A stretch of 18,104 nucleotides of DNA from an uncultured Spirochaetota bacterium. GTDB lineage: Bacteria; Spirochaetota; Spirochaetia; SZUA-6; Fen-1364. Below the pieces are notes generated by a model. The model was not told the origin of the DNA, did not search any database, and saw only the letters and a program-made list of their open reading frames with translations. Shown piece after piece: positions 1 through 18,104 of the stretch. Position numbers and translations under genes: made by a program. The first letter of the stretch is position 1; each line of letters begins with the position of its first letter. Location: NCBI GenBank assembly GCA_963745235.1, contig CAVUXE010000027.1, positions 1-18,104 of the forward strand. Reading direction: 5' to 3'.

Positions 1-71
1 CGAACGTATCGCTGAGCGCGGGCAGCGCCCGTGACTTCTATACCTCCGCCGATCCAGACCATCGCCCGGCT

Positions 72-3423: not shown

Positions 3424-4704
3424 TTGCTTTCCGTGGCAGCGGCGCCGAGTGTCTTCACGATCGAGCCGTCGAGGAGGCCCGGCGGAGGGTTCAGGACGAC
3501 AACGCTTCCGGCATCCACCCCGGTCACCGCGGCGCTGCTGCCGCTCTCCGCGAGAATTGTGATTCGGCGGACAACGGCTTTTCCGCCTTCAACGACATAG
3601 ACGAAGTTCTGGTCCTCATTCGTCTGCAGGGAGCCCGTCGGAATGATGGTCCCGTGCGCAAGGGCGAGGGAGTAGCTCAGGGTACCGATTACCCCGAAGG
3701 AGAGAGGGAGCGCCGCAGGCACCGCTGCCACCATGGGAACAACTCCATTCAGGGGGACGTCAGGAGCCTGGCTCACGGCAAGGCGATGGTCAGAGCCGTT
3801 CACGGTGAACTTGACGGGCGCGCCTAACGGGCAGGCTGGCCGCATCCGCCGGGGGCACATCGAAGTCGACTTCCTGCTCCCTGCTTGCAAGGATGAAGGC
3901 GGCCGCGTTCTGGCTGACCAGCTCGCCCGGCATGACGTTCACCGCCACCAGCCGCCCTGCGTAGGGCGCCTTTATCGCCGCGTGCTGGAGGTTGAGCTGG
4001 GCCTGCTGGAGCGCGAAGTCAGCCTGATCCACGGCAAGTTTCAGCTGGGCGATGTTCTGCACATCCGCCTTCTGGTTCTGGTCCAGTGCGGTCCTGGCAG
4101 CCTCGAGGTTCGCCTGCGCCAGCTCGAGGTCGCTCTTTGCCCGATCGACATCGGTGCTCGTTGCCCCTCCGAGGGCGAAAAGCGCCTTTTTCGAGTCGTA
4201 GCTCGTCTGTGCGGCAGACAGCGCCGACTGAGCGGAGCGCACCTGGAGGTCAAGCCGCGGGTTCGCCTGCTTCGTGGTATCCTGCCCGGTGGACAGGTTG
4301 ATACGGGCGGCCTCAAGAGACGCCTGCGCCGTCTTTACAGAAAGCCTGAGCTCGCTGTCGTCAAGCTGAATGACCGTATCCCCCCTGTCCACCCAGTCCC
4401 CGGCCTTGCGAACCACCCGTGAAACGACCCCGCTCATCTGCCCGACCACCTGGCTCTGCATGACCGGCTTCACGGTCCCGGAGGTCTGATGTTCAACCAC
4501 AAGGGCGCCGGTCTGCACGGGGACCGCCTGCACGGCGATCACGGCCACTCCCGGTCCCTTGGCCTGGGGGCTCACCCCTGATGCCTGGTCCGCGGCATTC
4601 TTCCCCGGCGCGCCGCGCGGTGCGCAGCCAACAGCCATGACAAGGATCGCGAGGGCAGCCGCCTTTGCAGCTCTCCTGAAGATCTTTGAGAGCGTTCTCA
4701 TCAC
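3420..4704 (-). CDS. RND periplasmic adaptor (membrane fusion protein), probable lipoprotein, ~427 aa; one +1 frameshift at ~3826-3831
   Basis: ORF 3790..4704 has a basic N-terminus, lipobox-like MAVG-C, lipoyl half-motifs (SGVVSRVVRKAGDWVDRGD; IKAPYAGRL) and a long helical hairpin. It continues in ORF 3420..3890 (GAPVKFTV...IIPTGSLQ...FVYVVEGGKAV) after removing one base. Start is GTG 4704 or ATG 4701; the GGAG RBS overlaps the tolC stop. Confidence 0.93.
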
Positions 4705-4713
4705 AATCTTCTC

Positions 4714-6159
4714 CTAATATCCCATTGCATTGCGAAGCTGCAGGATGGCCAGCTGGGCGTCTCTTTGAGCGAGCACCAGGGCGGACTGGGCATTTGCCGA
4801 GTCGATGGAGGCGTCCAGCAGGTCCTGGTTGGTTGCCGTTCCGAACTGCGCCTCCGTCTTCCTGAGCTTGAACTTCAGGTCGAACTTTTCCGCCGTGAGC
4901 CTTGCCACCTGAAGCCTCTGCACGTTTACCTGGACCAGCTCGTATGCTTCCTCGACGTCCGTCGAAATGCTCGCTCGAAGCTGGTCCTCCTGCACGCCAT
5001 ACACCTCGGTCTGGAGCCGGTTCGCTTCCAGCTGGTGGCCGACGGCCCCCGCGTCCAGAATGGGCATCCCGACTTTCAGGCCCACGGTTCCCTGGCCCGC
5101 TGTTGTCGTGACCTGCCAGTCATGGATGAGGTCGAGCCCCGCGGTGACGCTCACCGTCGGAGTCGCCTGTCCCTGGATCATGGCGCGATCTATCGCGGCA
5201 GCCTTTCGATTGAGCTCGATCTGCTGAATCTCGGTTCTTTTCTTCAGCGCCTCTGCGACAGCCTCTTCCTCGGTGCCCACGGGGACCTGGGGATCATCCT
5301 GCTCCGCGACGGTAAACTCCCTGTCTCGCTGCCAGCCTGTGAGCTGTGCCAGCCGGATCCTCGCGATGCGAAGGTCGTTTTCAGCGCTCCGAACGTCGAT
5401 GTCCGCGCTCTGGGCATTGATCTGGGCTGTTCGCAGATCAACCGCGGTGGCCTGGGAGAGCGCCTGGAGAGCGCTGATCTGCGCCAGGAGCGCATTCTGC
5501 TGGTCCCGGATCTCCTTTTTTACCGAGAGGTTTCTCTGGGCCCCGAGCATGACGAAGTACGCCTGCGTCACGGCTGAAACGATGTTCTGCCTGCCGGACT
5601 GGGTTGAGAGCTCGCTGCCGCGAAGGGCGAGCAGGCTCTTGTCCACTGCCGCCTTGCCGGTTCCTCCCGGGTAGCCGTTCCACAAGGTCTGGCTCACGCT
5701 GACATTGACGCTGCCGGTCGGGCCAGGCGTCACGACGGGTGTGCCTGGGGAAAAGAACGACAGCAGGGGGGAAAAGTCGCTCGCCAGGGTGCTGGCAGGC
5801 TGGTAGGGCATGATGGTGACCCCGATGCTCGTCAGGGGGGCGGCGATGGTCAGCCCAGCCTGCGGGGTCTGGCTGAATCCGGAGGACAGCAGGTTGTCGC
5901 CGAGAAGCGTTTCATCCCCGAACCCGTAGCTCGCGTTCTCTCCCACGGAGCCCGACAGGGCGAACGAGTTCTGTGAGACGCTCAGGCTGTATTGCTGCCT
6001 CCCTATCTCCAGGTTCTTCGCGAGGACCTTGCTGTCAGCCCCCTGGGCGAGGGCGCCCTCAACGGCCTGCGAGAGGGTCAGGACGGCCGGCTGCTGCGCC
6101 CAGAGAGAAAACGAGGAGAGGAAATCCAGAAACAGACAGATGATCAGGAGCCTTTTCAT
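4714..6159 (-). CDS. TolC-family outer membrane efflux protein, 481 aa
   Basis: Sec signal peptide (..SLWA/QQ), LTLSQAVEGAL start motif, AVTQAYF, two helical repeats with amphipathic beta segments (PTVSVTAG...GLKVGMPILDAG) and C-terminal GTATNQDLLDA. Sits between marR and the MFP gene. Confidence 0.93.
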   Translation of the reverse strand: MKRLLIICLFLDFLSSFSLWAQQPAVLTLSQAVEGALAQGADSKVLAKNLEIGRQQYSLSVSQNSFALSGSVGENASYGFGDETLLGDNLLSSGFSQTPQAGLTIAAPLTSIGVTIMPYQPASTLASDFSPLLSFFSPGTPVVTPGPTGSVNVSVSQTLWNGYPGGTGKAAVDKSLLALRGSELSTQSGRQNIVSAVTQAYFVMLGAQRNLSVKKEIRDQQNALLAQISALQALSQATAVDLRTAQINAQSADIDVRSAENDLRIARIRLAQLTGWQRDREFTVAEQDDPQVPVGTEEEAVAEALKKRTEIQQIELNRKAAAIDRAMIQGQATPTVSVTAGLDLIHDWQVTTTAGQGTVGLKVGMPILDAGAVGHQLEANRLQTEVYGVQEDQLRASISTDVEEAYELVQVNVQRLQVARLTAEKFDLKFKLRKTEAQFGTATNQDLLDASIDSANAQSALVLAQRDAQLAILQLRNAMGY

Positions 6160-6185
6160 GATAATCCCTCGATGCTCATCCCGCT

Positions 6186-6647
6186 CTACTTCTTCTTGAG
6201 GGCATTCAGCTCTTCTTTCAGAAACTCCTTGAGCTTCCGGAACATGCGCAGCGATGCCGCGCGATCGCTTTCGGAGACGCGCTCCAGGAATCGCTGCATT
6301 GTGTCCTGCAGCCTTTTGTCGACCACGGAGAGCTTCTTCTCGCCGGCCGCAGTCAGAGCGAGCAGGACGACCCTCCTGTCGTTTTCATCGAACTTGCGCT
6401 CGACGAGCCCGAGGTGAATCAGTCTGTCGACGATTCCCGTTGCGGCAGCGGGTGTCAGGAACTGCATGGTGGCGATGTCGGACATCCTGCACATCCGGTC
6501 CTGGTCCTTGAGCATCTTCAGCGTCATGGCCTGGTGTGCGGTAATGCCCTCCGCGCTGACGATGTTCTCCAGATGGCGGGCGAAGAGCGGGCTGATCTCG
6601 CTCTGGACTTCGAAGAACTCCTGGAGACTTGCCCTGCCCTCGGTCAT
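6186..6647 (-). CDS. MarR-family transcriptional regulator, 153 aa
   Basis: GITAHQAMTL...TPAAATGIVDRLIHLGLVERKFDENDRRVVLLALTAAG is a winged HTH with the DRR motif. First gene of the efflux operon. Confidence 0.95.
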   Translation of the reverse strand: MTEGRASLQEFFEVQSEISPLFARHLENIVSAEGITAHQAMTLKMLKDQDRMCRMSDIATMQFLTPAAATGIVDRLIHLGLVERKFDENDRRVVLLALTAAGEKKLSVVDKRLQDTMQRFLERVSESDRAASLRMFRKLKEFLKEELNALKKK

Positions 6648-6680
6648 GGTTCTCCCCCGCGCAAATACTTCATACTATTA

Positions 6681-6709
6681 AAGGTACACTATATTGATTA
6701 TTCCTGCAA
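6681..6709 (-). promoter_or_regulatory. Putative sigma70 promoter of the marR-efflux operon
   Basis: Minus strand TTGCAG (6709-6704), 17 nt, TACCTT (6686-6681) in an AT-rich island upstream of the marR RBS. Other -10-like hexamers overlap, so the exact register is uncertain. Confidence 0.5.
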
Positions 6710-6768
6710 TGGAATGTTCGTGAGATTCATGATACCGGTCACGGGAAGAGTCTCTGTTCCTGTCGTCC

Positions 6769-7622
6769 TTAACTCTTCACCGAGCCGGCGGTCATTCCCG
6801 CAAGGAAGTACCTCTGGGCCACCAGGAAAATGACCAGGATGGGCAGCGACCCGAAAAGGCTCATCGCCATCATCTGGTTCCACTCGTAGGCGTGCTGCCC
6901 CATCAACAACTGGATCCCGATGGGTACGGTGCGCATCTCCGTGGACTTGGTGAGCGTGAGGGCGAACAGGAACTCGTTCCAGGCCAGAAGAAACGTATAG
7001 ACGCCGGTGGCGACAACCCCGGGGACCGAGATGGGCACCAGGACGCGCCAGAGCGCGAAGAAGTTCGAACCTCCGTCCACCTTCACCGCATCATCGAGCT
7101 CCCTTGGCAGAGTGTTGAAGTAGCCCGTCATCATCAGGATGGCATACGGCAACGTGAACACCATGTAGGTCAGGATCAGCGCAAGATAGGTGTCGTACAG
7201 TCCAAAAACGACCACGATCCCGAAATAGGGAATCATGAGAGTGATGGGAGGAACCGTCTGGGTGCTGATGATGAAAAGGTTCAGCGGCTTCTTCAGCCCG
7301 AAGGTGTGACGGCTGAAGCTGTACCCGGCCACGATGGCCACGAGCAGTGTGAGGACGTGACGGAGGTCGCCACGAGGTAGCTGTTGAGAAAGAACCTGAT
7401 TTTCTCGGGATCGCTGAAGATGGCGTTGTAGGCAACCAGAGTGAACACCTTCGGGAAGATCCTTGGCGGGTACGAGAAGATCTCCGTGTTGGACCTGATG
7501 GAGCAGACGAGCATCCAGAGCACCGGGAAGCTCGCAAACACCAGGCCGACGGCCAAGCCTGCCGAGGTGCCGGCGAGAGTGGCCCATTTGCGCGGATGAC
7601 TGCGTCGGGCGGCCTTTGCCAT
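6769..7622 (-). CDS. Carbohydrate ABC transporter permease (MalG-like), ~284 aa; one -1 frameshift at ~7357
   Basis: The N-half in ORF 7293..7622 (FPVLWMLVCSIRS...FFLNSYLVATSVT) joins the C-half in ORF 6769..8166 (VLTLLVAIVAGYSFSR...LPRELDDAVKVDGG...FLLAWNEFLFALTL) by restoring one base. EAA-loop equivalent present. Confidence 0.93.
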
Positions 7623-7625
7623 ACC

Positions 7626-8546
7626 CTAGTCTTCCGCCCGCTGGTGTCGGACGTAGAAGAACGCCACGCACATGGAAAGGATGAGAACGACGACCGCGCT
7701 TGCCGAAGCGAGGGAGAACTGCAGATTGGCGAACGCAAGCTTGTAGGTGTAGGTTCCGAGCACCTCGGTAGTGTGGAGGGGGCCGCCTCCCGTGGTCATC
7801 CAGATGAGCGGGAAGACCTGCATGGTCCAGATGAAGTCGAGCATGGCAATGCTTTTGATGATCGGCGAGAGCTTCGGGACTGTGATGTACCAGAACTTCT
7901 GGGGCTCGTTGGCCCCATCGATAGTGGAGGCCTCGTACAGCTCGTTGGGGATCCCCTGCAGGCCGGCGAGAAGGCTGACCATGTAGAAGGGATACCCGGC
8001 CCAGATGTTCACAAACGTGACCGCGTGAAGCGCGAGGTTGGGATCCGAGAACCACGCAACCTCGCTGTTCGTAATGTGCAGGACCCTCACGACATAGGTA
8101 ACGACGCCGCTGGGATCCAGGAGCACGCGCCACATGATTGCGATGATGGTGGCGGTGAACACCCATGGCATGATGTAGAAGACCCTGAGCAGGCCCCTGA
8201 CGAGCGGGTGCACCACGCGGGAGTTCAACAGCAGGGCGAACGCCAGGCCGAGAAGCAGGTGGAAGATCACGCTCATCACCGTGAAATAGAGGATGTTGCC
8301 CAGCGCTATCCAGAACGTCGGGTCAGCAAGGATGGTGATGTAGTTCTGAAGCCCCACGAACACGGGGTGCGGCCTCATTATGACGCTGTCCAAAAGGGAA
8401 TAACGGACAACGGTGATGATAGGGATGAGCATGAGCAGGGCAAGGAGGATGAGCGTCGGTGACTGATAGAGATACGGGACAAGGGCGTCCTTCGCTCTAT
8501 AGGAAAGGAACGGTTGGTACGCCTGATCTCTCTGGCTCACTGCCAT
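7626..8546 (-). CDS. Carbohydrate ABC transporter permease (MalF-like), 306 aa
   Basis: FVGLQNY motif, multiple TM segments, EAA loop LQGIPNELYEASTIDGA, and MTTGGGP. Confidence 0.95.
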   Translation of the reverse strand: MAVSQRDQAYQPFLSYRAKDALVPYLYQSPTLILLALLMLIPIITVVRYSLLDSVIMRPHPVFVGLQNYITILADPTFWIALGNILYFTVMSVIFHLLLGLAFALLLNSRVVHPLVRGLLRVFYIMPWVFTATIIAIMWRVLLDPSGVVTYVVRVLHITNSEVAWFSDPNLALHAVTFVNIWAGYPFYMVSLLAGLQGIPNELYEASTIDGANEPQKFWYITVPKLSPIIKSIAMLDFIWTMQVFPLIWMTTGGGPLHTTEVLGTYTYKLAFANLQFSLASASAVVVLILSMCVAFFYVRHQRAED

Positions 8547-8572
8547 ACCTCTCTCTTGCGTTCGTCATGGAA

Positions 8573-8601
8573 GGCTACGCAATACGGTGTATTGCGTAGC
8601 C
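8573..8601. other. Perfect 13-bp intergenic stem-loop between the binding-protein and permease genes
   Basis: GGCTACGCAATAC-GGT-GTATTGCGTAGCC. No long U tract follows on the transcribed (minus) strand. Confidence 0.85.
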
Positions 8602-8627
8602 GAAGGAACCATCTTTGACAAAACGCC

Positions 8628-9863
8628 CTAGAACGACTTTACCCATTCTGCCTGAGCTTTGGCGGTTGCCTGCTCGGCGGTCTGCTTGCCATCGAGCATG
8701 AGCTGGATCTGCTCGTCGAATTCCCTCATCAACTGCTCTGCCACGGGAAGGCCCGTGAACTCGTTGGCGAGGTATCCGGACTTGAAGATCTGGAATGCCT
8801 TGGCATAGATGGCATCCGACGTAATGTAGGCGGGCTTCGCGTTCACGTTGCCGGGGAACGCATGGGCCAGGGTGACGAGCTTCCCGTTCACCTCTGGGCT
8901 CATCAGATACGATACCAGCTTCCATGCCTCAGCTTTGTGCTTGCTCTTCTCCGCGATGCCGATGCCCCAGGCGGCGTATGGAAGGCCGCGTTTGCCGGTA
9001 TAACCATCGGGGGCCGGAAGGGCGGAAATATCGAACTTCGTGCTGGGGTTGCGCTCGCGCATCATGTTCACCATTGCGAGAGAGCTTATCATCATGCCGA
9101 CACGACCGTTGACGAACGACTCCAGCTTGTCCTGCTCCAGCATCGAGAAGGCCCCGGGCGCAACGACGCCCGCCTTGTACATGGAATCAATGTAGTTCAG
9201 CGTGCTGATCACCGCGGGGTTGGTCAGGTCAGGCTGGCCGTCCTTGAGCATGCTTTTCCCGGCAGCCCAGACCCAGGACATGACGTCGTTCTGGACACCG
9301 TTGGGAAGCTGAAGAGCGAGCGGCAGCGCCCAGCCATACTGATTCTTCGATGGATTGGTCAGCTTTTTTGCATCCTCGAAGAACTCCGTCCGGTTGGTCG
9401 GCGGATGTTTGATACCGGCGGCCTTGAACATGTCGAGGTTGTAGAAGACAGGGTAGACGAATGAGGCCACCGGGAACATGTAGCTCTTTCCATCCACTTT
9501 GATGATGGCTGCAACCTGCTTGGGATCGAAGTTGGTGGAAGCCATGAGGGGGTCGAGCGGCGTGATTGCCCCCTGCTTGGCCAGATCGTTCACCCACGCG
9601 CCGTCAAGACCCACGACGTCGCTGAGCGTGCCGGTTGCTGCGCCGGCGACAATCTGGTCATGAGTATTGGCGTACGGGCCGCTGATGAGCTTTACCTTTA
9701 TGTCGGGATTCTGAGCTTCGAACTGGTCCATCAGCGCCTGGAACGAGCCTGCTGGCATCTGCGGCTCCCACCACTGGATGAACTCGATCGTCACTGGGGC
9801 GGCAGCCGCCCCGCATGCGGAAATGACGATGAATGCGAAAAGCAATACGAGAGTTCTCTTCAT
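8628..9863 (-). CDS. Sugar ABC transporter substrate-binding protein (CUT1, family 1), 411 aa
   Basis: Start reassigned to ATG 9863 after RBS AAAGGAG. Signal peptide MKRTLVLLFAFIVISACGAAAA, then FEAQNPDIKVKL, FYNLDMFKAAGI, FVNGRVGM and EAWKLVSYL. Confidence 0.95.
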   Translation of the reverse strand: MKRTLVLLFAFIVISACGAAAAPVTIEFIQWWEPQMPAGSFQALMDQFEAQNPDIKVKLISGPYANTHDQIVAGAATGTLSDVVGLDGAWVNDLAKQGAITPLDPLMASTNFDPKQVAAIIKVDGKSYMFPVASFVYPVFYNLDMFKAAGIKHPPTNRTEFFEDAKKLTNPSKNQYGWALPLALQLPNGVQNDVMSWVWAAGKSMLKDGQPDLTNPAVISTLNYIDSMYKAGVVAPGAFSMLEQDKLESFVNGRVGMMISSLAMVNMMRERNPSTKFDISALPAPDGYTGKRGLPYAAWGIGIAEKSKHKAEAWKLVSYLMSPEVNGKLVTLAHAFPGNVNAKPAYITSDAIYAKAFQIFKSGYLANEFTGLPVAEQLMREFDEQIQLMLDGKQTAEQATAKAQAEWVKSF

Positions 9864-9926
9864 GCTCTTCTCCTTTCGGTAGTTTGGGCGATCTACCCCA
9901 TATTCCGGTAGCATCACCGATATCTG

Positions 9927-9955
9927 ATTATGAATCCACTCTGCCGTCGTGTCAA
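9927..9955 (-). promoter_or_regulatory. Sigma70 promoter for the ABC importer operon
   Basis: Minus strand TTGACA (9955-9950), 17 nt, CATAAT (9932-9927), preceded by an AT-rich UP-like tract. Confidence 0.8.
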
Positions 9956-9984
9956 GAAAAATATGAAAGTATATTAACATTTTT

Positions 9985-10010
9985 TTTGTCCATATTTATC
10001 CGATTTAGTC
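9985..10010. repeat. Three 10-bp-phased degenerate direct repeats, candidate DeoR operator
   Basis: TTTGTC (9985), TTTATC (9995) and TTAGTC (10005) lie between the two divergent -35 boxes. Confidence 0.35.
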
Positions 10011-10012
10011 GG

Positions 10013-10041
10013 TTGACTCGATATTGATCATCTGATATGCT
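10013..10041 (+). promoter_or_regulatory. Sigma70 promoter with extended -10 for the catabolic operon
   Basis: TTGACT (10013-10018), 17 nt, TATGCT (10036-10041), with TG at 10033-10034. Confidence 0.8.
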
Positions 10042-10068
10042 ACCACTCAGTCGTTTTGGCTGTGTATT

Positions 10069-10087
10069 AATGACCATTTTGGTCATT
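10069..10087. promoter_or_regulatory. Inverted repeat in the leader of the catabolic operon (operator or RNA hairpin)
   Basis: AATGACCA-TTT-TGGTCATT has perfect 8-bp arms and is followed by TGCTTTTTG. Confidence 0.5.
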
Positions 10088-10128
10088 TGCTTTTTGTCAC
10101 TCGTTCAGGGGTGTACCATGGAGCATCT

Positions 10129-11316
10129 ATGGGTGAGCGTATCGTGCTGGGGTTCAGCGGCAACACTGATTACGAAATCGAGTGGGACTCCCACGTTTTT
10201 GAGCAATTGATTGCCGAGCTCAGCGCCGCAAGCTCCGAGCTGGACACCGACATACCCATCTCCAGCACTCGAGACCTCCTGATCTCGATCCTTGGCTTCC
10301 TGAAAAACAGCGGCGGGGGAGAGCGTTTTGTTCTCTCACCGGGCATCATAGAGGATTTTGCAAGCCGCTTCCGGTACAAGATCACAATCGGCGGGACTTC
10401 CGTTCGCGCGGCCATCGCCATGAGAAAGCTGGGATATACCTCCGCGCTGCATCTGGTCACCGTCAACGACCACATACGGAGACTGATACCGCAGGACAGC
10501 CCGTGGGTCTGCAGCAACGACAAGGACAGCTTCTATCCACACCTGATCGTCCAGTTCGGCAAGGACACGTGCGTGCAGGCCGGAGACATTGCGGTCCGAA
10601 CGAAACGGGCAAACAGGATCATCTATCATAATGACGAAGATCACATCGTCATGCGGATAAACCCCGACTTCGCGTCCCTGGCCTCAGACGCCCGCGTGTT
10701 CCTCATCTCGGGGTTCAATGCGATGCAAAGCGGCGACCTGCTGGCGGAAAGGCTGGAGACGGTCCTGGACATCCTGCGCTCCGTGCCGTCCGATGCTCTG
10801 GTGTTCTTTGAGGATGCGTGTTTCCACGACCCGGCGCTCAGCGTGCAGGTCCGCAAGGCCCTGATCCACAGGATCGACATCTACAGCCTGAACGAAGACG
10901 AGCTTCAAGGGCACCTGGGCAGGAAGGTCTCCCTGCTCGATCCGCTCGACGTGCATGCCGCATTGCAGGACCTGAGCCGCGTGGTTCCCGCGCCGACGCT
11001 GGTGATTCACACGCAGTATTGGGCGCTCGCCTTCGGGTCGCACGCCGCCGGCTACGCAAAGGCCCTGAAGGGAGGAATCACGATGGCCACGACGCGGTTT
11101 CGTTTCGGAGATGGTTTCACCGCGGCCGACTATGAGGAAACGCGAGGACTTCCCCCGGAAACCATCGGGGCAGAGTTTGCCGCCAGGATCAAAGGGCTGG
11201 CAAAGGACAGGGTCTGTTGCCTCCCGTCTGTCCAGGTCAGGGAGTCCCGGGTCACCACCATTGGATTGGGAGATGCCTTTGTCGGCGGTTTCCTGCCGGC
11301 ACTGGTTGAAAGATAG
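10129..11316 (+). CDS. ADP-dependent glucokinase/phosphofructokinase family sugar kinase (ribokinase superfamily), 395 aa
   Basis: Start reassigned to ATG 10129 (GGAG at 10120-10123). Colinear family motifs: GFSGNTD, GGGERFV, IGGTS, HLIVQF, ANRIIYHND, ISGFNAM, FFEDA, SLNEDEL (NxxE), VIHT and TTIGLGDAF (catalytic Asp). Confidence 0.9.
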   Translation: MGERIVLGFSGNTDYEIEWDSHVFEQLIAELSAASSELDTDIPISSTRDLLISILGFLKNSGGGERFVLSPGIIEDFASRFRYKITIGGTSVRAAIAMRKLGYTSALHLVTVNDHIRRLIPQDSPWVCSNDKDSFYPHLIVQFGKDTCVQAGDIAVRTKRANRIIYHNDEDHIVMRINPDFASLASDARVFLISGFNAMQSGDLLAERLETVLDILRSVPSDALVFFEDACFHDPALSVQVRKALIHRIDIYSLNEDELQGHLGRKVSLLDPLDVHAALQDLSRVVPAPTLVIHTQYWALAFGSHAAGYAKALKGGITMATTRFRFGDGFTAADYEETRGLPPETIGAEFAARIKGLAKDRVCCLPSVQVRESRVTTIGLGDAFVGGFLPALVER

Positions 11317-11343
11317 AGCACTGCATTCGGAAGGAGAGCATGG

Positions 11344-12207
11344 ATGAGCATCGTCACGAACAAGCAGCTGATGGATCGCGCAAGAGAGGGCCGCTACGCG
11401 GTGGGCGCGTTCAACACGAACAACCTGGAGTACATGCAGGCAATCCTGGGAGCCGCTTCAGAGCTGCGGTCCCCGGTCATCATTGGGGCGGCCAAGAGCG
11501 AGATAGACTACATGGACGGGCACGTGTTCGTTGCCATGGTGCGCGCCATGGCTGAGAAGCTCCCCATCCCGGTGAGCATCCACCTGGACCACGGCCCCTC
11601 GTACGACGAGGCCATCCGCTGTCTTCGGTATGGATTCACATCAGTCATGTACGACGGCTCCAGCCACTCTTTGGAGGAGAATATCGCCATCACGAAGAAG
11701 GTCGTTGCGGCCGCCCATGCCTGCGGCGTGCCCGTGGAAGGGGAGATCGGAGTGATCGGCCAGGCCGCCGACGGGCCGGAAGGGCCGAAGAGCGACATGC
11801 TGGGTCTCGCGGATCCCGGCCAATGCGAGGTGTTCGTAAGGGAAACCGGCGTCGACTTCCTGGCAGCCGCCATCGGGAATGCCCACGGCATCTACACTCG
11901 CAAGCCGGAGCTGCGCTTTGACCTGCTGATGGATATTCAGAAGCGGACCGGCGTCCCGCTCGTTCTTCACGGCGGCACCGGTATCCCGGAAGAAGATATC
12001 CGCAAGGCCATCACCCTGGGAGTGGCAAAAATCAACTTCAGCACCGTCATGAGGAAAGGCTGCATCGAGACGCTCACCAAGACCTTGAACGCGAACCCCG
12101 GGGATTGGGATCTCATGAAGCTTCTCACCCCGGCCCGGCAGAAGATGGTGGAGATTGCAAAGCAGCACATGCGGATGTGCATGAGCGATGGAAAGGCCTG
12201 GACGTGA
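11344..12207 (+). CDS. Class II (metal-dependent) ketose-phosphate aldolase, FBA/TBA family type B, 287 aa
   Basis: YAVGAFN, HLDHG, GFTSVMYDGS, VEGEIG, GNAHG, LVLHGGTG and KINFST motifs; RBS AAGGAG. Confidence 0.95.
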   Translation: MSIVTNKQLMDRAREGRYAVGAFNTNNLEYMQAILGAASELRSPVIIGAAKSEIDYMDGHVFVAMVRAMAEKLPIPVSIHLDHGPSYDEAIRCLRYGFTSVMYDGSSHSLEENIAITKKVVAAAHACGVPVEGEIGVIGQAADGPEGPKSDMLGLADPGQCEVFVRETGVDFLAAAIGNAHGIYTRKPELRFDLLMDIQKRTGVPLVLHGGTGIPEEDIRKAITLGVAKINFSTVMRKGCIETLTKTLNANPGDWDLMKLLTPARQKMVEIAKQHMRMCMSDGKAWT

Positions 12208-12232
12208 ACGGCCTGATCGCGCCATCCGGCAT

Positions 12233-12261
12233 TTGACCTTGATGCCCCGGTAGGAGATTAT
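12233..12261 (+). promoter_or_regulatory. Possible internal promoter for deoR
   Basis: TTGACC (12233-12238), 17 nt, GATTAT (12256-12261), ending 8 nt before the ATG. Confidence 0.35.
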
Positions 12262-12269
12262 CGCATCAC

Positions 12270-13049
12270 ATGGCCAAGAGAGATTTTGTCGAGGAACGAC
12301 GCAACAAGATTCTCGAGTACATCAACAAGAACAATCGCGCCGATGTCGACGAGCTTGCGGCTTTCCACACCGTCACGGAAGCCACAATCCGCCGGGACCT
12401 GCTCTCCCTCGAGAAGCAAGGCCGCGTGTACCGAGCCCACGGCGGTGCGCTTCGGCGCGAGCAGCTCTCCGTGTGGCAGACAACCAGGCTGCAGGACCGG
12501 ATGGTCATGCAACTGGAAGAGAAGACACGGATCGCGCAGTTCGTGACGCAGCTGATCCATGACGGGGAAAGTCTCATGATCGACGGCGGAAGCACCACGA
12601 TGATGGTCGCACACACGCTGCGCGCAAAGAAGAACCTGCTGGTGGTCACCAATGCGCCCGCCATTGGAGAATCGATGGTCGAAGTCAATGACAACAAGGT
12701 CATCCTGACCGGAGGCGAGCTCCTGAAGGAAACCAGGGGCTTGATCGGGGCCGCCGCGGAGCTTTCCCTGAAGCAGTATCGGACAGACAAGGCCATTATC
12801 GGTGTGTCGGGAATCATCATCGACCAGGGTTGTTTCGCGGCAATTCCCCAGGAGGCTGAGATCAAGCGTCTCATGTCCTCCAACTCGGGCGAGACCATTG
12901 TCGTCTCTGACAGCTCGAAGATCGGGGCCTGCGCGTTTTGCTTCTTTTGCGACTTCACTCACGTCGACAAGCTGGTGACCGACAGGAACATCAGCAAGGC
13001 CGCGTTGGAAGCGCTGAAGCACCAGGGGGTGGAGGTTTTTGCGGTCTGA
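12270..13049 (+). CDS. DeoR/GlpR-family transcriptional regulator, 259 aa
   Basis: EERRNKIL...VTEATIRRDLLSLEKQGRVYRAHGGA HTH; sensor domain with IDGGSTT, VVTNA and DSSKIG. Confidence 0.96.
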   Translation: MAKRDFVEERRNKILEYINKNNRADVDELAAFHTVTEATIRRDLLSLEKQGRVYRAHGGALRREQLSVWQTTRLQDRMVMQLEEKTRIAQFVTQLIHDGESLMIDGGSTTMMVAHTLRAKKNLLVVTNAPAIGESMVEVNDNKVILTGGELLKETRGLIGAAAELSLKQYRTDKAIIGVSGIIIDQGCFAAIPQEAEIKRLMSSNSGETIVVSDSSKIGACAFCFFCDFTHVDKLVTDRNISKAALEALKHQGVEVFAV

Positions 13050-13058
13050 GGAGGCGCC

Positions 13059-14186
13059 ATGAGGAAAGTGAAAGTCGGTCTGATTGGCTGCGGAAATATC
13101 AGCGACATCTACCTGAAAAACGCCCGAGACGTTTTCCAGGTGCTCGACGTCGTCGCGTGCGCTGACCGGACCGAGGACAAGGCGAAGGAAAAGGCGAAAG
13201 CGTATGGGATCAAAGCGTTTCCCATCGATGAGCTCCTGGCGCTCAAGGATATAGACATAGTTCTCAATCTGACTGTTCCCTCCGCACATCTCGGCATATC
13301 AGTGAAAGCATTAGAGAACGGCAAACACGTCTATAGCGAAAAGCCGCTCGCTGCCGCGCGAGACGAAGGAAGAATCATCCTCGAGAAAGCGAAGGAAAAA
13401 GGGTTGTTCGTCGGGTGCGCTCCGGACACCTTCCTTGGGGGCGGACTCCAGACCGGCAGGAAGCTGCTGGATGACGGATGGATTGGAACCCCTTTTGGGG
13501 CCATTTCGTTCATGATTGGCGGCGGTCCCGCGCTGTCTCACCCGAACCCGGATTTCTACTACAAGAAGGGCGCTGGCCCGATGCTGGATATGGGCCCCTA
13601 TTACGTGACCGCTTTGGTGTCCCTTCTCGGTCCGGTCAAAAGGGTCACCGGAATGGCGACGACGCCGTTCCTGGAAAAGACGATTACCGGGCCGACGCGC
13701 TACGGACAGAAGATAAAAGTCGAAACCCCGACCTACGTCAGCGGCACCATGGAGTTCCGCAACGGCGTGTGCGCGAATCTCCTCACCAGCTTCGATCTTC
13801 ACTATCCGTACTGGGATTCACACCTGCCCTTCATCCAGATCTTTGGAAGCGAAGGGACCTTGTCCTTGCCTGACCCCGACACCTTTGGCGGTCCCGTCCT
13901 GGTGAGGCGTTTCGGCGGGGATTTCACGAGCGTTCCTTTGACGCACGGATTCCTGGAGAACAGCCGAGGCATCGGACTCGCCGACATGGCCGTCTCGATT
14001 CTGCGTCGAAAAAAGCCCCGCGCGAATGGCGACATGGCTTTCCATGTCCTCGATGTCATGACCGGCTTTCTCGATTCCGCCCGGAGCGGGTCGCACTACA
14101 TGGTGACAAGCACGTGCGAGAGACCGGAACCCCTGTGCCGGGTCCTGCCGAAAAACTCCACTGAGCCGGCCGAGGGAAAAGGATGA
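13059..14186 (+). CDS. Gfo/Idh/MocA-family NAD(P)-dependent oxidoreductase, 375 aa
   Basis: IGCGNIS Rossmann motif, GKHVYSEKP, CAPDTFLG and HPNPDFYY..GAGPMLDMGPYY; RBS GAGGAGG. Confidence 0.94.
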   Translation: MRKVKVGLIGCGNISDIYLKNARDVFQVLDVVACADRTEDKAKEKAKAYGIKAFPIDELLALKDIDIVLNLTVPSAHLGISVKALENGKHVYSEKPLAAARDEGRIILEKAKEKGLFVGCAPDTFLGGGLQTGRKLLDDGWIGTPFGAISFMIGGGPALSHPNPDFYYKKGAGPMLDMGPYYVTALVSLLGPVKRVTGMATTPFLEKTITGPTRYGQKIKVETPTYVSGTMEFRNGVCANLLTSFDLHYPYWDSHLPFIQIFGSEGTLSLPDPDTFGGPVLVRRFGGDFTSVPLTHGFLENSRGIGLADMAVSILRRKKPRANGDMAFHVLDVMTGFLDSARSGSHYMVTSTCERPEPLCRVLPKNSTEPAEGKG

Positions 14187-15139
14187 AACAGTCCATTCTT
14201 GTTGCCCCTCAGAAGAGCCGCATCGAGGAGCGCCCCGTTCCGCAGGTGGGCGATACGGAGGTGCTGGTCAAGGTCAAAGCGTGCGGCGTCTGTTCGTCCG
14301 AGCTGCACGGCTGGGCGGGAGACGACGGCGCATATCCGCGGGAGATCGGCCACGAAGTGGTTGGCGAGGTCGTCCAAGTAGGCAGGCGGGTAGATGCCTT
14401 CCATGCCGGAATGACGGTCACCGGCCTGTTCCAGCCGGGATTCGCCGAGCTCGCGGTGGCGCGACAGGAAGCGGTGACGCCTCTCCCGCAGGGCATGAAA
14501 GACACCCTCGCACTCGGCGAACCGCTCGCGTGCGTCCTCAGCGGTGCGCGGCGCACTCCCGTGGAGCTGGCGGACACTGTTGCACTGGTCGGACTGGGCT
14601 TCATGGGGCTGCTGATGCTGCAGGTCGTTCGGCTGAAAGGCCCGGCACGAATCATCGGCATCGACACTCGATTGGAAGCCAGAGACGCTGCCCTTCGGGC
14701 GGGAGCGGACGAAGTGCTGGCGCCGGAGGACGTTCCGGCGCCTCTCAAGCTCACCGAGTGGGGCCAGCGCGGCAAAGGTTGGGGTGTGGATGTCGCCTTT
14801 GAAACCAGCGGCACGCAGGCCGGGCTGACGCTCGCCGCTCAAATGCCCCACGAGCATGGCGTCCTGTCCATCGTCGGCTTTCACCAGCGCGGACCGCGCC
14901 AGGTTGATATGGAATTGTGGAACTGGAAAGCCTTGCAGGTGCTGAACGCGCATGAGCGGCGCGAAGGGTATCTCATGGATTGCATGCGCCGCGGACTCGA
15001 CCTGGTGGCTGCCGGCAGGATCGACATGGCTTCTCTAGTCACCCACACATTCGGTCTCCACCAGGTGGACAACGCTTTTCAGGCGCTTCAGTCGAAGCCG
15101 CCCGGATTCATCAAGGCCGCAATCGTCATTGACCATTAG
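14183..15139 (+). CDS. Zinc-binding medium-chain dehydrogenase (MDR) lacking the structural-zinc lobe, 318 aa
   Basis: CGVCSSELH, GHE and EPLAC catalytic-Zn ligands. GLGFMG with a downstream Asp (IGIDTR) suggests NAD. No four-Cys cluster. ATGA overlap with the upstream gene. Confidence 0.92.
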   Translation: MKQSILVAPQKSRIEERPVPQVGDTEVLVKVKACGVCSSELHGWAGDDGAYPREIGHEVVGEVVQVGRRVDAFHAGMTVTGLFQPGFAELAVARQEAVTPLPQGMKDTLALGEPLACVLSGARRTPVELADTVALVGLGFMGLLMLQVVRLKGPARIIGIDTRLEARDAALRAGADEVLAPEDVPAPLKLTEWGQRGKGWGVDVAFETSGTQAGLTLAAQMPHEHGVLSIVGFHQRGPRQVDMELWNWKALQVLNAHERREGYLMDCMRRGLDLVAAGRIDMASLVTHTFGLHQVDNAFQALQSKPPGFIKAAIVIDH

Positions 15140-15142
15140 GCC

Positions 15143-15172
15143 AAAAAACGGAGCGCCCTAGGCGTCCCCGTT
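15143..15172 (-). terminator. Intrinsic terminator for minus-strand transcription; the hairpin may also cap the convergent plus-strand operon
   Basis: Minus strand AACGGGG(A)CGCC-TAG-GGCGCTCCGTT running into a T6 tract, 3 nt beyond the MDR stop. Confidence 0.6.
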
Positions 15173-15177
15173 AGCTC

Positions 15178-15560
15178 CTAGTATTCTGTAAACGACTAAG
15201 TACTTAATCACGAACTGCTTTTCGGACGCGCGCGAGGATCTCCTCGGAACTCTTGGCCCACACAAAGCGCTTGCAGGATTCGTAGCACTCGATTGACTAT
15301 TTTCTGGCTGAGCGGGGTCTTCCCCGGCTTGTGGTTCGGCAGCTTAAGCAGATCAACCCCTCGCTCGTTGATGCGCCGTACGATGGTGCTGACAGAAGCC
15401 GGGTGAATGCTGTGAGTATCTCCGGGATTTCACTCGTGCGTTTTTCATCGGTCCTGTCCAACACGACCTGAGTCTTGTCGCCTGCTTGTGATCCAGTGCA
15501 TGTCCCGACAACGGCCAGGCATAGTCTCGGGACGATAAGTCGGCAGATACCGATCCTGAT
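15178..15560 (-). mobile_element. Degenerate, internally deleted IS630-family element (transposase N-terminus fused to extreme C-terminus, right end retained)
   Basis: Across three minus frames: HKQATRL / QVVLDRTDEKRTSEIPEIL / IHPASVSTIVRRINERGVDLLKLPNHKPGKTPLSQKIVNRVLRILQ (HTH region). It then jumps at ~15273 to KRFVWAKSSEEILARVRKAVRD* (stop 15204-15206) and ends in ...TTACAGAATACTAG with a TA target at 15179-15180. Confidence 0.75.
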
Positions 15561-15651
15561 AGCCGCGGTGCGTCTGATGATAGCAATCATGACGCCCGTG
15601 ACAATTGTTCAGATGCGCAGGGTGGTAAGAGAGAAGACTTCGAGCGGCGCT

Positions 15652-16323
15652 TTAGGAAGCGGTTGGTCCCCACTCGCGGATCGTCTGCACAAAGGCGCGA
15701 CTTCGCGCCTCGACTTTGTCAAACTCTCCGCGAGCAATCAATTTCCCGTCCACGAGGTTGCCGCCGATTCCAAACCCGACGACACCCGCCTGCAGGAAGT
15801 CCTTCATATTGCTAAGATCAACTCCTCCCACGGCGAGAAGGGGAACGTGCTTCAGCGGCGCCCGGATGGCCTTGATGTATTCACAACCGAGCTGGCCTGC
15901 CGGAAACAGCTTGACGAAATCTGCGCCCTCCGTCACCGCCCTGACGATCTCCGTCGGGGTGAACGCCCCGGGGATCGAGAGAGCGCCGAGCTTGCAGGTT
16001 TCGCGTATGACCTGCGGGTTCATGTCGGGGGACACGATATAGCTGGCCCCGGCCTCAATTGCCAGGGACACTTGTAGGGAAGTCAAGACTGTCCCGGCGC
16101 CGGGAATGATCTCACCAGCAAACTCGCGCGAGATCTTCCGGTGCGAATCAAGCTCCTCCTCATTGTTTCCGTTCCTGGTTTGGTCCAACGTTATCTCTAC
16201 GAGACGTATTCCGCCACGGCGCAGCGCGGCCACCGTTTCCACGACTTTTGCGCTCTCTACTCCCCTGATGATTGCAATGAGCTTTTCCGTGACAACCGCG
16301 GCCTTGATATCGTCCTTATGCAT
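15652..16323 (-). CDS. eda: KDPG/KHG (Eda-family) class I aldolase, 223 aa
   Basis: Start reassigned to ATG 16323. Motifs IAIIRG, GGIRLVEIT, GAGTV, IVSP, PGAFTPTEI, Schiff-base VKLFPA and AVGGV. Exact substrate (KDPG, KDPGal or KHG) not resolved. Confidence 0.9.
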   Translation of the reverse strand: MHKDDIKAAVVTEKLIAIIRGVESAKVVETVAALRRGGIRLVEITLDQTRNGNNEEELDSHRKISREFAGEIIPGAGTVLTSLQVSLAIEAGASYIVSPDMNPQVIRETCKLGALSIPGAFTPTEIVRAVTEGADFVKLFPAGQLGCEYIKAIRAPLKHVPLLAVGGVDLSNMKDFLQAGVVGFGIGGNLVDGKLIARGEFDKVEARSRAFVQTIREWGPTAS

Positions 16324-17419
16324 TCCTCTCTCCCCCCATCCGGGATTCCATGAACCGGCGAATTCTTGCGATCCCGTGCTCGATATTCTGTTCTGACGTC
16401 GCATATGACATCCGTATGTAGCCTTCACCGGCGCTTCCGAAGCCCGAGCCGGGAACCGTAACGACGGCGGTTTCCTTGAGCAACTCCGTAGCGAACGTTT
16501 CGGAGCTCATCCCCGACCGGGAGATGTTGACAAAGCAGTAGAATGCACCCTTCGGCCAGATACAGGAGAGATTGCCGGCCCCTCCAGTGCCCCAATGGCG
16601 GCATATTGTGCCTGCGTGTTGACGCAACCGACCACATTTTCCTGCAATTTGACCATGTTCCTTGCGATGATTTCGGGTCCGACCGCGTCGCCGACTCTCC
16701 AGCCGTCATTGCGTACGTCTTGGAGAAGCTGTCGATCATGAGCGTGCGCTCCCTCATGCCCTCGAGCGAGGAGGCACTGGCAAACGTTGCGCCGTCATAC
16801 AAGAAGTGGTGATACACTTCGTCGGAAATGACAAAGAGATCATGCTCCGCGGCCACGCGGGCGATTTCGCTCATCGTGTTCCTGTCGATGACCGAGCCTG
16901 TCGGGTTTGAAGGCGAATTAAGGACAATTACCTTAGTCCTGCTCGTAACAGCCTTGCGTATGTCATCGGGTGAAAGAACGAAGCTATTCTCCTCGCGTGC
17001 CGTCACGAAACGGGGAATCCCGCCGCACATCTGGACCTGTTGAGGATAGTTTGGCCAGTGCGGGTTGCTGATGATCACCTCATCGCCCGGGTCGATAAGA
17101 ACCATCAACCCCAGCATCAGCGCCTCCATCCCTCCTGCGGTGACGATTATTTCCCGTTCCGGGTCGGCGGTCAGCGAGATCTCATTCGCCACGCGCCGTG
17201 CTATCGCTTCCCTGAGGGGAAGCAGTCCCGCGTTCGCGGTGTAGTGGGTTTCCCCCGCTCCAGGGAACGAATCGCGGCAGCGTTGATGTTTTCCGGCGCA
17301 ACGAAATCCGGTTCGCCAACGGTAAAGCTGATCACGTCCTTCATCGTCGCGGCGATATTGAACATCTTTCTTATTGGAGACGGAGTTATCTCTCGAGCGA
17401 TGATGGAAATGTTCTTCAC
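16316..17419 (-). pseudogene. PLP-dependent class I (aspartate aminotransferase-like) aminotransferase, disrupted
   Basis: GTG 17419 after GAGGT. Motifs VGEPDF, THYTANAG, NSPSNPTG, SDEVY, SFSKTYAMTGWRVG, PKGAFY, PGSGFG and EGYIRMSYA are spread over four segments. There are -1 shifts at ~17252-17256 and ~16704, plus an out-of-frame internal deletion at ~16576. Confidence 0.85.
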
Positions 17420-17429
17420 CTTGTACCTC

Positions 17430-17507
17430 GATCTCTTCACTCGACGAGGCCACCGCCTGCGCGCTCTGCTGAATGGAGTCGACCACGCCGCTGAGCTTCT
17501 CCACCAT
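17430..17507 (-). pseudogene. 26-codon fragment resembling a methyl-accepting chemotaxis protein (start of the cytoplasmic signalling region)
   Basis: MVEKLSGVVDSIQQSAQAVASSSEEI matches the post-HAMP methylation-helix pattern. There is an in-frame stop just upstream, and the fragment abuts the aminotransferase RBS downstream. Confidence 0.6.
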
Positions 17508-17569
17508 CAGCGTCGAACGTCAAGAACAGCGCGCGTCTGGTGAGGCTGCCTCTTACAACCGGAACATTA

Positions 17570-18104
17570 GGATCCGACACAAAATAAACGCTACACATAG
17601 CATTAGGAGTCGTGTATACTCTGGGAGTGACACCCGAAGCGAGTATTCGATTCCGATTTCAGCGATTGGCCTCGACGCTTGACGAACGAGCCCTGCGCCT
17701 ATTCGCGGCAACGGAAGCGGAAGCGCTTGGGCACGGGGGTATTTCCCAGGTGTCACGCATCACCGGTTTGGCTCGCTCGACCATTCTTCGCGGACAACAA
17801 GAACTCCGCCAACGGCCGGGAGTGACCCCGGGCAGAATCCGCCGCCCCGGGGGGAGGACGGAAGAAGGTGAGCGCAGTAGATCCGACGGTGGTGCAGGAG
17901 CTGGAGCGCCTTGTTGAACCGTTGTCCCGAGGAGATCCGATGTCGCCGTTGCGCTGGACGTGCAAGAGCATTCGCACGTTGGCGGACACCCTGCAGCGCA
18001 TGGGTCACGGGGCCAGCCATCGGTGGGTTTGGGCCACCCTGCACGAGCTGAACTATAGTCTCCAAGGCAACCGCAAGATGGAGGAGGGCAACCAGCACGC
18101 CGAC
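17570..18104 (+). mobile_element. ISAzo13-family insertion sequence, left end and 5' part (runs off the window)
   Basis: Candidate left terminal repeat GGATCCGACACAAAATAAAC after TTA (17567-17569), followed by the transposase. The right end is not in the window, so the boundary is unconfirmed. Confidence 0.85.
17627..18104 (+). CDS. ISAzo13-family (Rhodopirellula-type DDE) transposase, partial; +1 frameshift in the G6 run at 17849-17854
   Basis: LDERALRLFAATEAEALGHGGISQVSRITGLARSTILRGQQEL...RIRRPGG, then after the shift GRKK...LVEPLSRGDPMSPLRWTCKSIRTLA...LHELNYSLQGNRKMEEGNQHAD. Start is GTG 17627 or 17612. Confidence 0.92.

Follow-up and report, generated by a model that had tools for sequence, protein, structure and literature searches.

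A divergently arranged locus for sugar catabolism was examined in an 18,104-nucleotide stretch of DNA (the window) from an uncultured Spirochaetota bacterium (GenBank assembly GCA_963745235.1, contig CAVUXE010000027.1, positions 1 to 18,104 of the forward strand). The locus, at window positions 6769-15139, combines the binding protein and permeases of a CUT1 ABC importer with a kinase of the ADP-dependent glucokinase/phosphofructokinase family (PF04587), a class II aldolase (PF01116), a DeoR-family regulator and two dehydrogenases, and is an uncharacterised module of a conventional sugar catabolic kind assembled with unusual parts. The reading favoured here, with a probability of about 0.55, is that a neutral ketose receives one phosphate beside its keto group and is then cleaved to dihydroxyacetone phosphate (DHAP) and an aldehyde.

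According to this scheme the importer, made up of a lipoprotein binding protein and two permeases, would bring in an unphosphorylated neutral sugar, the 395-aa kinase would phosphorylate it on the primary hydroxyl beside the keto group, at C1 in a 2-ketose, and the class II aldolase would split the product, a ketose monophosphate, to give DHAP and an aldehyde without phosphate. The DeoR protein would sense the sugar phosphate and repress both divergent operons, a sensing role that would fall to an RpiR or GntR protein in other lineages. The Zn dehydrogenase and the GFO/IDH/MocA oxidoreductase (GFO) may feed substrates into the pathway, by conversion of a polyol or aldose to a ketose, or may dispose of the aldehyde; the feeders of other lineages would be a D-lyxose/D-mannose isomerase or a cupin resembling phosphomannose isomerase (PMI). 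It is proposed that these optional enzymes (the isomerase, the PMI-like cupin and the sorbitol-dehydrogenase-like Zn dehydrogenase) all make 2-ketoses. The initial annotation of the locus had put forward the same core of import, a single phosphorylation and cleavage, preceded by formation of the ketose by the dehydrogenases. The core, for a neutral sugar that yields DHAP and an aldehyde, is upheld indirectly by the evidence below, but the dehydrogenase step is not.

Conservation of the cassette

Related loci (n = 88; eight from genomes and 80 from metagenomes) were compared by tblastn and by clustering of all open reading frames (ORFs), a scan of genome contigs contributing four loci only. A word search with the kinase returned 1374 relatives, the best 120 of which are all at least 59% identical to it and ~394 aa in length, come from Spirochaetia, Anaerolineae, Caldilinea and Clostridia, and carry automatic names only. 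Cultured carriers include Ruminiclostridium cellobioparum, Clostridium sediminicola and Jiangella gansuensis. In a full profile search the kinase family comprises 234 clusters at 50% identity (E up to 1e-30). Wherever a locus extends for at least 4.5 kb to each side of the kinase gene, as 24 do, it includes genes for the binding protein and both permeases. Flanks of at least 1 kb on each side are available for 43 loci; a PF01116 aldolase gene adjoins the kinase gene in 37 of these, and a gene for a different protein, Y333, does so in four more; the two others are L002, which has the aldolase elsewhere in the same operon, and L093, which has none. An aldolase-type gene is therefore next to the kinase gene in 41/43 loci, and the association on which the initial annotation was built is conserved. 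Indeed, the grouping of these genes is far beyond chance, and one protein, P0241, is a fusion of PF01116 and PF04587 domains, 55% identical to the window kinase. No recurrent second kinase was found across the 88 related loci, and the flanking genes outside the cassette vary between loci.

Three arrangements were distinguished. In type A, to which the window belongs, the binding protein and permease genes are divergent from, or upstream of, a kinase-aldolase-regulator unit; the PF01116 aldolase is 72-91% identical to that of the window and the regulator is an adjoining DeoR protein (61-89% identical). Type B has the order regulator (RpiR), binding protein, permeases, aldolase and kinase, with a PF01116 aldolase only 37-42% identical to the window protein and above the cut-off of NCBIfam PRK08185. 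Type C, which is marine, has the order binding protein, permeases, Y333, kinase and regulator (GntR), with Y333 in place of the PF01116 aldolase. Across the related loci the binding protein is 55-79% and permease 1 52-74% identical to the window proteins, so that one kinase and one importer family occur together with three DHAP-type aldolases that are not orthologous to one another.

The third of these, Y333, is a 333-aa protein (L039:5845-6846, with relatives in L025, L029, L030, L033-L036 and L038-L040) that has no Pfam match and, in NCBIfam, resembles ADH synthase and LsrF only weakly; Lys217 is invariant, and there are 6693 unnamed relatives. The top 50 Foldseek matches of its AlphaFold model (pLDDT 74.3) are all class I aldolase relatives (LsrF, ADH synthase, LacD, YihT and Cgl0159), the best with E 6.9e-8 and a TMq of 0.59. 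On this model Y333 is a predicted class-I-aldolase-like replacement for the class II aldolase in the marine loci.

The kinase is patchily distributed in its own lineage, being found in six of 41 relatives, all of the same genus, and in two of 401 genomes sampled from the phylum, which fits an accessory, transferable module. DNA nearly identical to the window occurs in soil, peat, wetland and freshwater-sediment metagenomes from nine studies, runs with a small share being left out of this statement. Contigs from a peat metatranscriptome (RNA run X19) cover 8650-8918 and 9704-9897, and so two stretches of the binding-protein gene. They are at most a weak hint of transcription, as the RNA library may contain DNA.

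The remaining enzymes of the locus are less widely shared. The GFO gene is restricted to four of the 88 loci (L013, L021, L031 and L087), which are those with kinases closest to that of the window (75-77% identity). The Zn dehydrogenase gene accompanies it in L013, L021 and L087, with copies 75-77% identical; the contig of L031 ends before it. The dehydrogenases, proposed in the initial annotation as the ketose-forming step, are accordingly a clade-specific addition and no part of the core. Solved relatives of GFO are weak (DgpA, a sugar 3-ketoreductase and inositol dehydrogenases), and the nearest solved proteins to the Zn dehydrogenase are secondary-alcohol, ketose-reductase and sorbitol dehydrogenases. 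Elsewhere, a D-lyxose/D-mannose isomerase gene (PF07385) directly follows the kinase gene in four of the 88 loci (L003, L037, L046 and L047). Fusion proteins from Actinomycetota, P0242 (Jiangella gansuensis) and P0243, join the kinase to a C-terminal PMI-like bicupin, which is homologous to type I PMI (1qwr, E 3.1e-10) and has its metal motifs kept; both fused kinases retain the invariant residues of the family. Two further proteins of ~745 aa, P0282 and P0291, belong with these fusions. Two close relatives carry, directly downstream of permease 2, an aldehyde:ferredoxin oxidoreductase gene (L012:12989-14878) and a PfkB kinase gene (L013:14153-15307), respectively. These genes may handle the aldehyde product, and the oxidoreductase of L012 would suit disposal of a free aldehyde. 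The best solved relatives of the binding protein (E ~1e-18), which bind sorbitol, sophoro-oligosaccharides or maltose, are too distant to name its ligand.

Active sites of the kinase and the aldolase

The kinase matches PF04587 with 87.8 bits against a cut-off of 27, the match being confined to positions 2-265 of the 430 in the model; in the fusion protein P0241 it spans positions 2-426. A search of solved structures with the kinase sequence returned no match. The top Foldseek matches of its AF2 model (pLDDT 90.3) are ADP-dependent phosphofructokinases (ADP-PFK) and glucokinases (ADP-GK), with TMq values of 0.77-0.82 at 15-19% identity. Indeed, ranks 1-21 are all occupied by ADP-GK or ADP-PFK proteins (TMq 0.63-0.82), whereas PfkB-family proteins reach only ~0.4. 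Additionally, a profile of the kinase family matches ancMT at 8.8e-12 and the Pyrococcus furiosus glucokinase at 5.7e-11. The modelled fold is that of the ADP-dependent kinases, with a ribokinase-like large domain and a lid.

Residues were counted in 77 full-length kinases, with roles and AncMsPFK numbering taken from PMC7948494. That paper lists the catalytic GXGD Asp, Arg206, Asp36, Asn32 and the NXXE and HXE motifs as conserved across the ADP-dependent family. The window kinase keeps the catalytic Asp (Asp382), Arg206 (Arg163), NXXE (Asn255 to Glu258), the sugar-binding Asp36 (Asp14) and the Glu of HXE (Glu228), and is probably active, as judged from these residues. The same source gives Lys179, Asn181 and Arg212 as ligands of the phosphate of fructose 6-phosphate (F6P) in ADP-PFK, Arg212 being PFK-specific, and describes Glu90 as conserved only in glucokinases and bifunctional enzymes and position 181 as His in glucokinases. 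The F6P-phosphate set is not kept in the kinases compared, with Tyr, Phe or His at position 136 (Lys179), His at 138 (Asn181) and Asp or Asn at 169 (Arg212). Conversely, the residues that mark glucokinases, Glu65 (Glu90) and His138, are present in 77/77. These data suggest that the kinase probably binds a neutral sugar and not a sugar phosphate. The sugar residues are of the glucokinase and not the phosphofructokinase type. The kinase looks glucokinase-like, but with departures at three conserved positions: the His of HXE is replaced by Phe or Tyr (position 226), Asn32 by Gly in 74/77 and by Ser in the window protein (position 10), and Gln244 by Asn (Asn197).

The aldolase scored 319.4 against TIGR01859, below the cut-off of 343.05, and 280 against TIGR00167, above the cut-off of 215.6. 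Its best solved relatives are fructose-bisphosphate aldolases (FBAs) of the Bacillus type (7ncc, 4.4e-74), ahead of SqiA-type chains (E ~1e-56) and YdjI. The Zn histidines and catalytic Asp (Asp82, His83, His181 and His209) are invariant, and the loop that holds the DHAP phosphate is conserved. The site for the distal phosphate is different. In Helicobacter pylori FBA the 6-phosphate ligands are Ser49, Arg259 and Arg280 of the partner subunit, and SqiA has Ala in place of Arg280, according to PMC10665668; alignment with the Thermus enzyme puts these ligands at an SxG loop, a DTDLR motif and a DPR motif. In the window aldolase Ser49 corresponds to Ala50, Arg259 to Arg237 and Arg280 (the DPR arginine) to Met258, so that two of the three ligands are lost.

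The loss is general, the DPR arginine being present in none of the 61 kinase-linked class II aldolases (that of the window and 60 others). Among the 27 type A proteins, window included, position 258 is Met in 26 and His in L016, and position 50 is Ala in 24 and Thr or Asp in three; among the 34 type B proteins, position 258 is Asn, Leu or Ser and position 50 is His throughout. For comparison, E. coli GatY and KbaY have Arg (DPR) at 258 and Thr at 50, and E. coli YdjI, by its RefSeq name a ketose-1-monophosphate aldolase, has no Arg at 258 and Gly at 50. Position 237 is Arg in 25 of the 27 type A proteins, and Lys in 34/34 of type B, as in GatY and KbaY. Lys51 and Lys238 accompany Arg237 in the window aldolase and would leave room for an anionic tail.

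The genome has eight PF01116 paralogues, among which L102 carries the full Ser/Arg/DPR triad and is likely, on these residues, to encode the housekeeping FBA; only L102 and L103 keep the DPR arginine (paralogue loci L102-L108 lie on contigs C35, C28, C54, C37, C94, C97 and C52 of genome G000). Since L102 carries the full triad, the linked aldolase is not the housekeeping FBA. By its residues it is, rather, a specialised paralogue with a predicted degraded distal phosphate site, which is what a monophosphate substrate predicts. The organism seems to have many specialised aldolase-based sugar modules.

Layout of the locus and quality of the record

Pfam and NCBIfam scans recovered every gene listed in the initial annotation at the coordinates given there (Table 1), and family scans showed, as had also been claimed, that no isomerase, second kinase, glycosidase or phosphotransferase-system gene lies within 6769-15139.

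Table 1. Features of the sugar locus, in window coordinates
Feature	Coordinates	Strand	Evidence or remark
Permease 2 (MalG-like, CUT1)	6769..7622	-	Pfam BPD_transp_1, 57.3 bits, C-terminal part; one-base frameshift in the record
Permease 1 (MalF/UgpA-like, CUT1)	7626..8546	-	Pfam BPD_transp_1, 50 bits; NCBIfam MalF/UgpA-like below cut-offs
Solute-binding lipoprotein SBP_bac_1, 411 aa	8628..9863	-	Pfam, 143 bits
Divergent control region, 265 bp	9864..10128		Between binding-protein and kinase genes
ADP_PFK_GK sugar kinase, divergent 395-aa bacterial clade	10129..11316	+	Pfam PF04587, 87.8 bits
Class II (Zn) DHAP-type aldolase, distal pocket predicted to be remodelled	11344..12207	+	PF01116, 325 bits
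DeoR-family repressor	12270..13049	+	HTH_DeoR and DeoRC domains
GFO/IDH/MocA oxidoreductase, accessory, clade-specific	13059..14186	+	Pfam
Short Zn-dependent alcohol/polyol dehydrogenase, accessory	14183..15139	+	ADH_N and ADH_zinc_N domains

The start of the binding protein is most likely the internal ATG at 9863, because a lipoprotein-type signal, MKRTLVLLFAFIVISAC, with an ISAC lipobox results. The kinase most likely starts at ATG 10129 and not at TTG 10087, because its homologues are 393-395 aa long. The Zn dehydrogenase gene is translationally coupled to the GFO gene by an ATGA overlap. The binding protein and both permeases of a CUT1 importer were found, permease 2 being frameshifted in the record. 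No gene for the ABC ATPase was found within the locus, and a search of the genome with OB_MalK gave only a sub-threshold match (24.6 against a cut-off of 27); it is proposed that the ATPase is encoded elsewhere in the genome.

The control region contains promoter-like sites on the minus strand at 9955..9927 (11/12 matches) and on the plus strand at 10013..10041 (9/12). The motif TCTGAT(A/T)ATG occurs twice, at 9924-9938 and 10030-10044, and variants of it are found in orthologous intergenic regions, TCTGATATG in four and TCTGATTAT in two of the 11 compared (five distinct regions in all). The motif is a candidate half-site of the DeoR operator. A perfect 8-nt palindrome at 10069-10087 was considered as an operator and rejected, as other loci contain no copy of it.

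A 465-aa ORF at 6769-8166 proved to be an artefact; permease 2 begins at ATG 7622, 3 nt past the stop codon of permease 1. Residues 2-85 of an intact permease 2 orthologue align with 7610-7356 in frame -1, and residues 86-280 with 7356-6772 in frame -3, which places the switch of frame near 7355/7356. A short-read contig from run X1 has one extra T behind 7355 and is otherwise identical over 6782-7482; this single contig, at a depth of 4.5, constitutes the read evidence, runs X2 and X3 having no coverage at 7355. A further single-base difference, an indel, occurs at 6743 in X1 and X3. To the right of the cassette, moreover, an aminotransferase gene (16316-17507) is split over two frames, with ORF 16425-17507 corresponding to Pfam positions 36-225 and ORF 16316-16627 to positions 294-361. 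Taken together, the permease frameshift, the split aminotransferase and the difference at 6743 suggest that the record carries scattered single-base errors. The frameshift in permease 2 is probably an error of the assembly consensus, real pseudogenisation being a possible alternative.

Among the neighbouring genes, those at 1-6647 on the minus strand form an RND efflux operon that looks complete and has no relation to the sugar cassette. They encode an AcrB-type pump (1-3423, continuing beyond the edge of the window), an outer-membrane factor (4714-6159) and, between the two, a membrane-fusion protein (3790-4704); a gene for a MarR-family regulator lies upstream. Just past the cassette, on the opposite strand, is a KDPG/KHG-aldolase-like gene of the Eda family (15652-16428), which is not conserved beside the cassette in related loci.

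Alternative routes, known systems and significance

Several observations weigh against cleavage of a neutral ketose 1-phosphate. The sugar residues of the kinase are those of glucose 6-kinases and are compatible with a plain hexose 6-kinase, and four arginines invariant in the kinases (Arg48, Arg93, Arg117 and Arg323) might accommodate an anionic substrate. The aldolase closely resembles true FBAs, both in its TIGR01859 score (319 against 343) and in its best solved relatives, it keeps Arg237, the equivalent of H. pylori Arg259, and its residues were mapped by sequence alignment as opposed to a ligand-bound structure. The cupin fusions fit 6-phosphorylation as well as isomerisation of a free sugar, and most loci are without a ketose-forming enzyme. 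Apart from fructose, free ketoses are uncommon in nature. The frameshift in permease 2, if real, would inactivate the importer in this organism. Finally, the analysis shows gene content, conservation, fold and residue patterns, whereas the phosphorylated position, the cleavage of a monophosphate and the class of substrate are inferred.

One alternative is a route through a bisphosphate. The kinase would then phosphorylate C6 of a ketohexose or an aldohexose (tagatose, psicose, fructose or mannose, for example), the 1-phosphate would be added by a host phosphofructokinase, and the linked enzyme would be a ketose-1,6-bisphosphate aldolase of altered stereospecificity. Such a route would account for the glucokinase-type Glu65 and His138, for an aldolase near the FBA equivalog score and above the ketose-bisphosphate subfamily cut-off, and for the basic residue at position 237 (Arg in 25/27 type A, Lys in 34/34 type B as in GatY and KbaY). 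Furthermore, PMI-like fusions would convert an aldose 6-phosphate to a ketose 6-phosphate; phosphomannose isomerase normally acts on 6-phosphates. It is nonetheless judged unlikely. The DPR arginine is missing from all 61 linked aldolases and the Ser49 equivalent is lost too, a recurrent second kinase is absent from the 24 fully covered loci, and the hosts are so different that the route would have to rely on promiscuous host phosphofructokinases. In addition, a canonical FBA is already present in the genome, and the linked D-lyxose isomerase family acts, according to its annotation, on free sugars.

An acidic substrate is a less probable alternative still. A keto-uronate or other acidic ketose would be phosphorylated at C1, as envisaged for YdjH and YdjI, and cleaved to DHAP and an acid aldehyde, with cationic residues of the type A distal pocket binding the carboxylate or sulfonate. 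The residues available in the remodelled type A site (Lys51, Arg237 and Lys, Asn or Gln at 238), the four kinase arginines and the absence of the DPR arginine from YdjI, which is annotated as an octuluronate-1-phosphate aldolase, would all suit such a substrate. However, type B aldolases have His50, Pro51 and Lys237, and Y333 replaces both aldolase types, while the kinase and binding protein remain orthologous; the F6P-phosphate positions of the kinase are Tyr and Asp, CUT1 binding proteins of this profile mostly bind neutral sugars, and there is no linked gene for a uronate isomerase, a sulfoquinovosidase or an exporter. The initial annotation had named sulfofructose among its candidates, but with neither an isomerase nor a sulfoquinovosidase or exporter linked, a sulfosugar is unlikely. 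Sulfoquinovose, myo-inositol and 2-keto-3-deoxygluconate-type pathways were each considered and set aside, their other defining genes being absent, and in the case of myo-inositol the IolG/IolM-like scores are far below the cut-off.

A loose association of a general ADP- or ATP-dependent hexokinase with a co-regulated extra glycolytic or gluconeogenic FBA, with no special pathway, would be in keeping with homologues annotated only as ADP-dependent glucokinase/phosphofructokinase and an aldolase 40-45% similar to Bacillus FBAs, but is very improbable given that an aldolase adjoins the kinase in 41/43 loci, in three non-orthologous forms and one fusion, that the 6-phosphate site of the aldolase is degraded, that the genome has its own canonical FBA, and that a patchy kinase (6/41 relatives, 2/401 phylum genomes) fits an accessory, substrate-specific module.

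Within the preferred reading, cleavage of a neutral ketose 1-phosphate, narrower proposals can be made with less assurance. D-Fructose and D-xylulose have the stereochemistry that is cleaved by FBA-type enzymes; it is rather doubtful, though, that the feeders lead to one of these two, mannose, mannitol or sorbitol being the proposed sources of D-fructose and lyxose, arabitol or xylitol those of D-xylulose. Somewhat better placed, if still tentative, is the proposal that the cassette encodes a widespread ketose-1-phosphate pathway primed by a ketose 1-kinase, which would represent a new specificity in the ADP-dependent family, possibly with conversion of ADP to AMP, and for which aldolases would have been recruited three times independently. 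By analogy, and no more firmly, such a pathway might do in bacteria what fructolysis does in the liver, or might mirror the fucose and rhamnose routes in the D configuration.

Comparison with characterised systems shows a shared pathway logic in IolC/IolJ, the fucose and rhamnose pathways, the ydj cluster and the sulfo-Embden-Meyerhof-Parnas (sulfo-EMP) pathways. The E. coli ydj cluster has almost the same components as the locus, namely a DeoR protein (YdjF), one kinase (YdjH), a PF01116 aldolase (YdjI) and two Zn dehydrogenases (YdjJ/YdjL) together with transporters; moreover YdjI, like the window aldolase, is without the DPR arginine and is annotated for a ketose 1-monophosphate. However, YdjH is a PfkB as opposed to a PF04587 kinase, the ydj transporters belong to the MFS and not the ABC type, YdjI is only 36% identical to the window aldolase, and the ydj substrate is an acidic octulose, going by RefSeq product names. 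In the L-fucose and L-rhamnose pathways an isomerase, a ketose 1-kinase and a ketose-1-phosphate aldolase lead to DHAP and lactaldehyde. The order of reactions is the same and the optional isomerases linked to the cassette (D-lyxose isomerase and PMI-like cupin) fit it, but those pathways employ FGGY kinases and PF00596 aldolases, and all three of their enzymes are non-homologous to the PF04587 and PF01116 or class-I-like members of the cassette.

The sulfo-EMP and sulfo-EMP2 pathways (YihS/V/T and SqiI/K/A) are like the cassette in their single kinase and monophosphate aldolase of class I (PF01791) or class II (PF01116). They need, however, a sulfoquinovose isomerase, a PF00294 or PF00365 kinase, a sulfoquinovosidase and a sulfolactaldehyde reductase or dehydrogenase, none of which is linked here; sulfoquinovose isomerase (PF02952) and sulfofructose kinase (PF00365) were found neither in the window nor in the related loci examined. 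Animal fructolysis (ketohexokinase, aldolase B and triokinase) proceeds through fructose 1-phosphate to DHAP and glyceraldehyde with unrelated enzymes, and its chemistry would be the same only if the substrate of the cassette were fructose. With archaeal and eukaryotic ADP-GK and ADP-PFK the window kinase shares the predicted fold, the catalytic Asp, the Arg206 and Asp36 equivalents, NXXE and the glucokinase-type Glu and His, but it is only 15-19% identical to them, is ~60 residues shorter, and belongs to a catabolic operon with an ABC importer and an aldolase, not to glycolysis. Because its kinase family differs and the other defining genes are absent, the cassette is not a member of the fucose/rhamnose, ydj, IolC/IolJ or sulfo-EMP systems. 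A literature search with most subscription journals outside its coverage yielded neither a description of the cassette nor a characterised bacterial member of PF04587. The abstract of PMC7948494 mentions no more than that bacteria have been reported to carry such genes.

The finding places bacterial PF04587 proteins in an import, kinase and aldolase cassette across soil, peat, sediment and marine bacteria. Naming the substrate would annotate the kinase family, two uncharacterised subfamilies of class II aldolase and a class-I-aldolase-like family with thousands of members, and the identity of the phosphoryl donor would tell whether bacterial sugar catabolism uses ADP-dependent phosphorylation. 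Labels such as 'FBA' and 'ADP-dependent glucokinase/phosphofructokinase' can, meanwhile, mislead metabolic reconstruction from metagenomes. If the ketose 1-kinase pathway is true, it would be the first physiological role for the bacterial PF04587 proteins and for the Y333 family.

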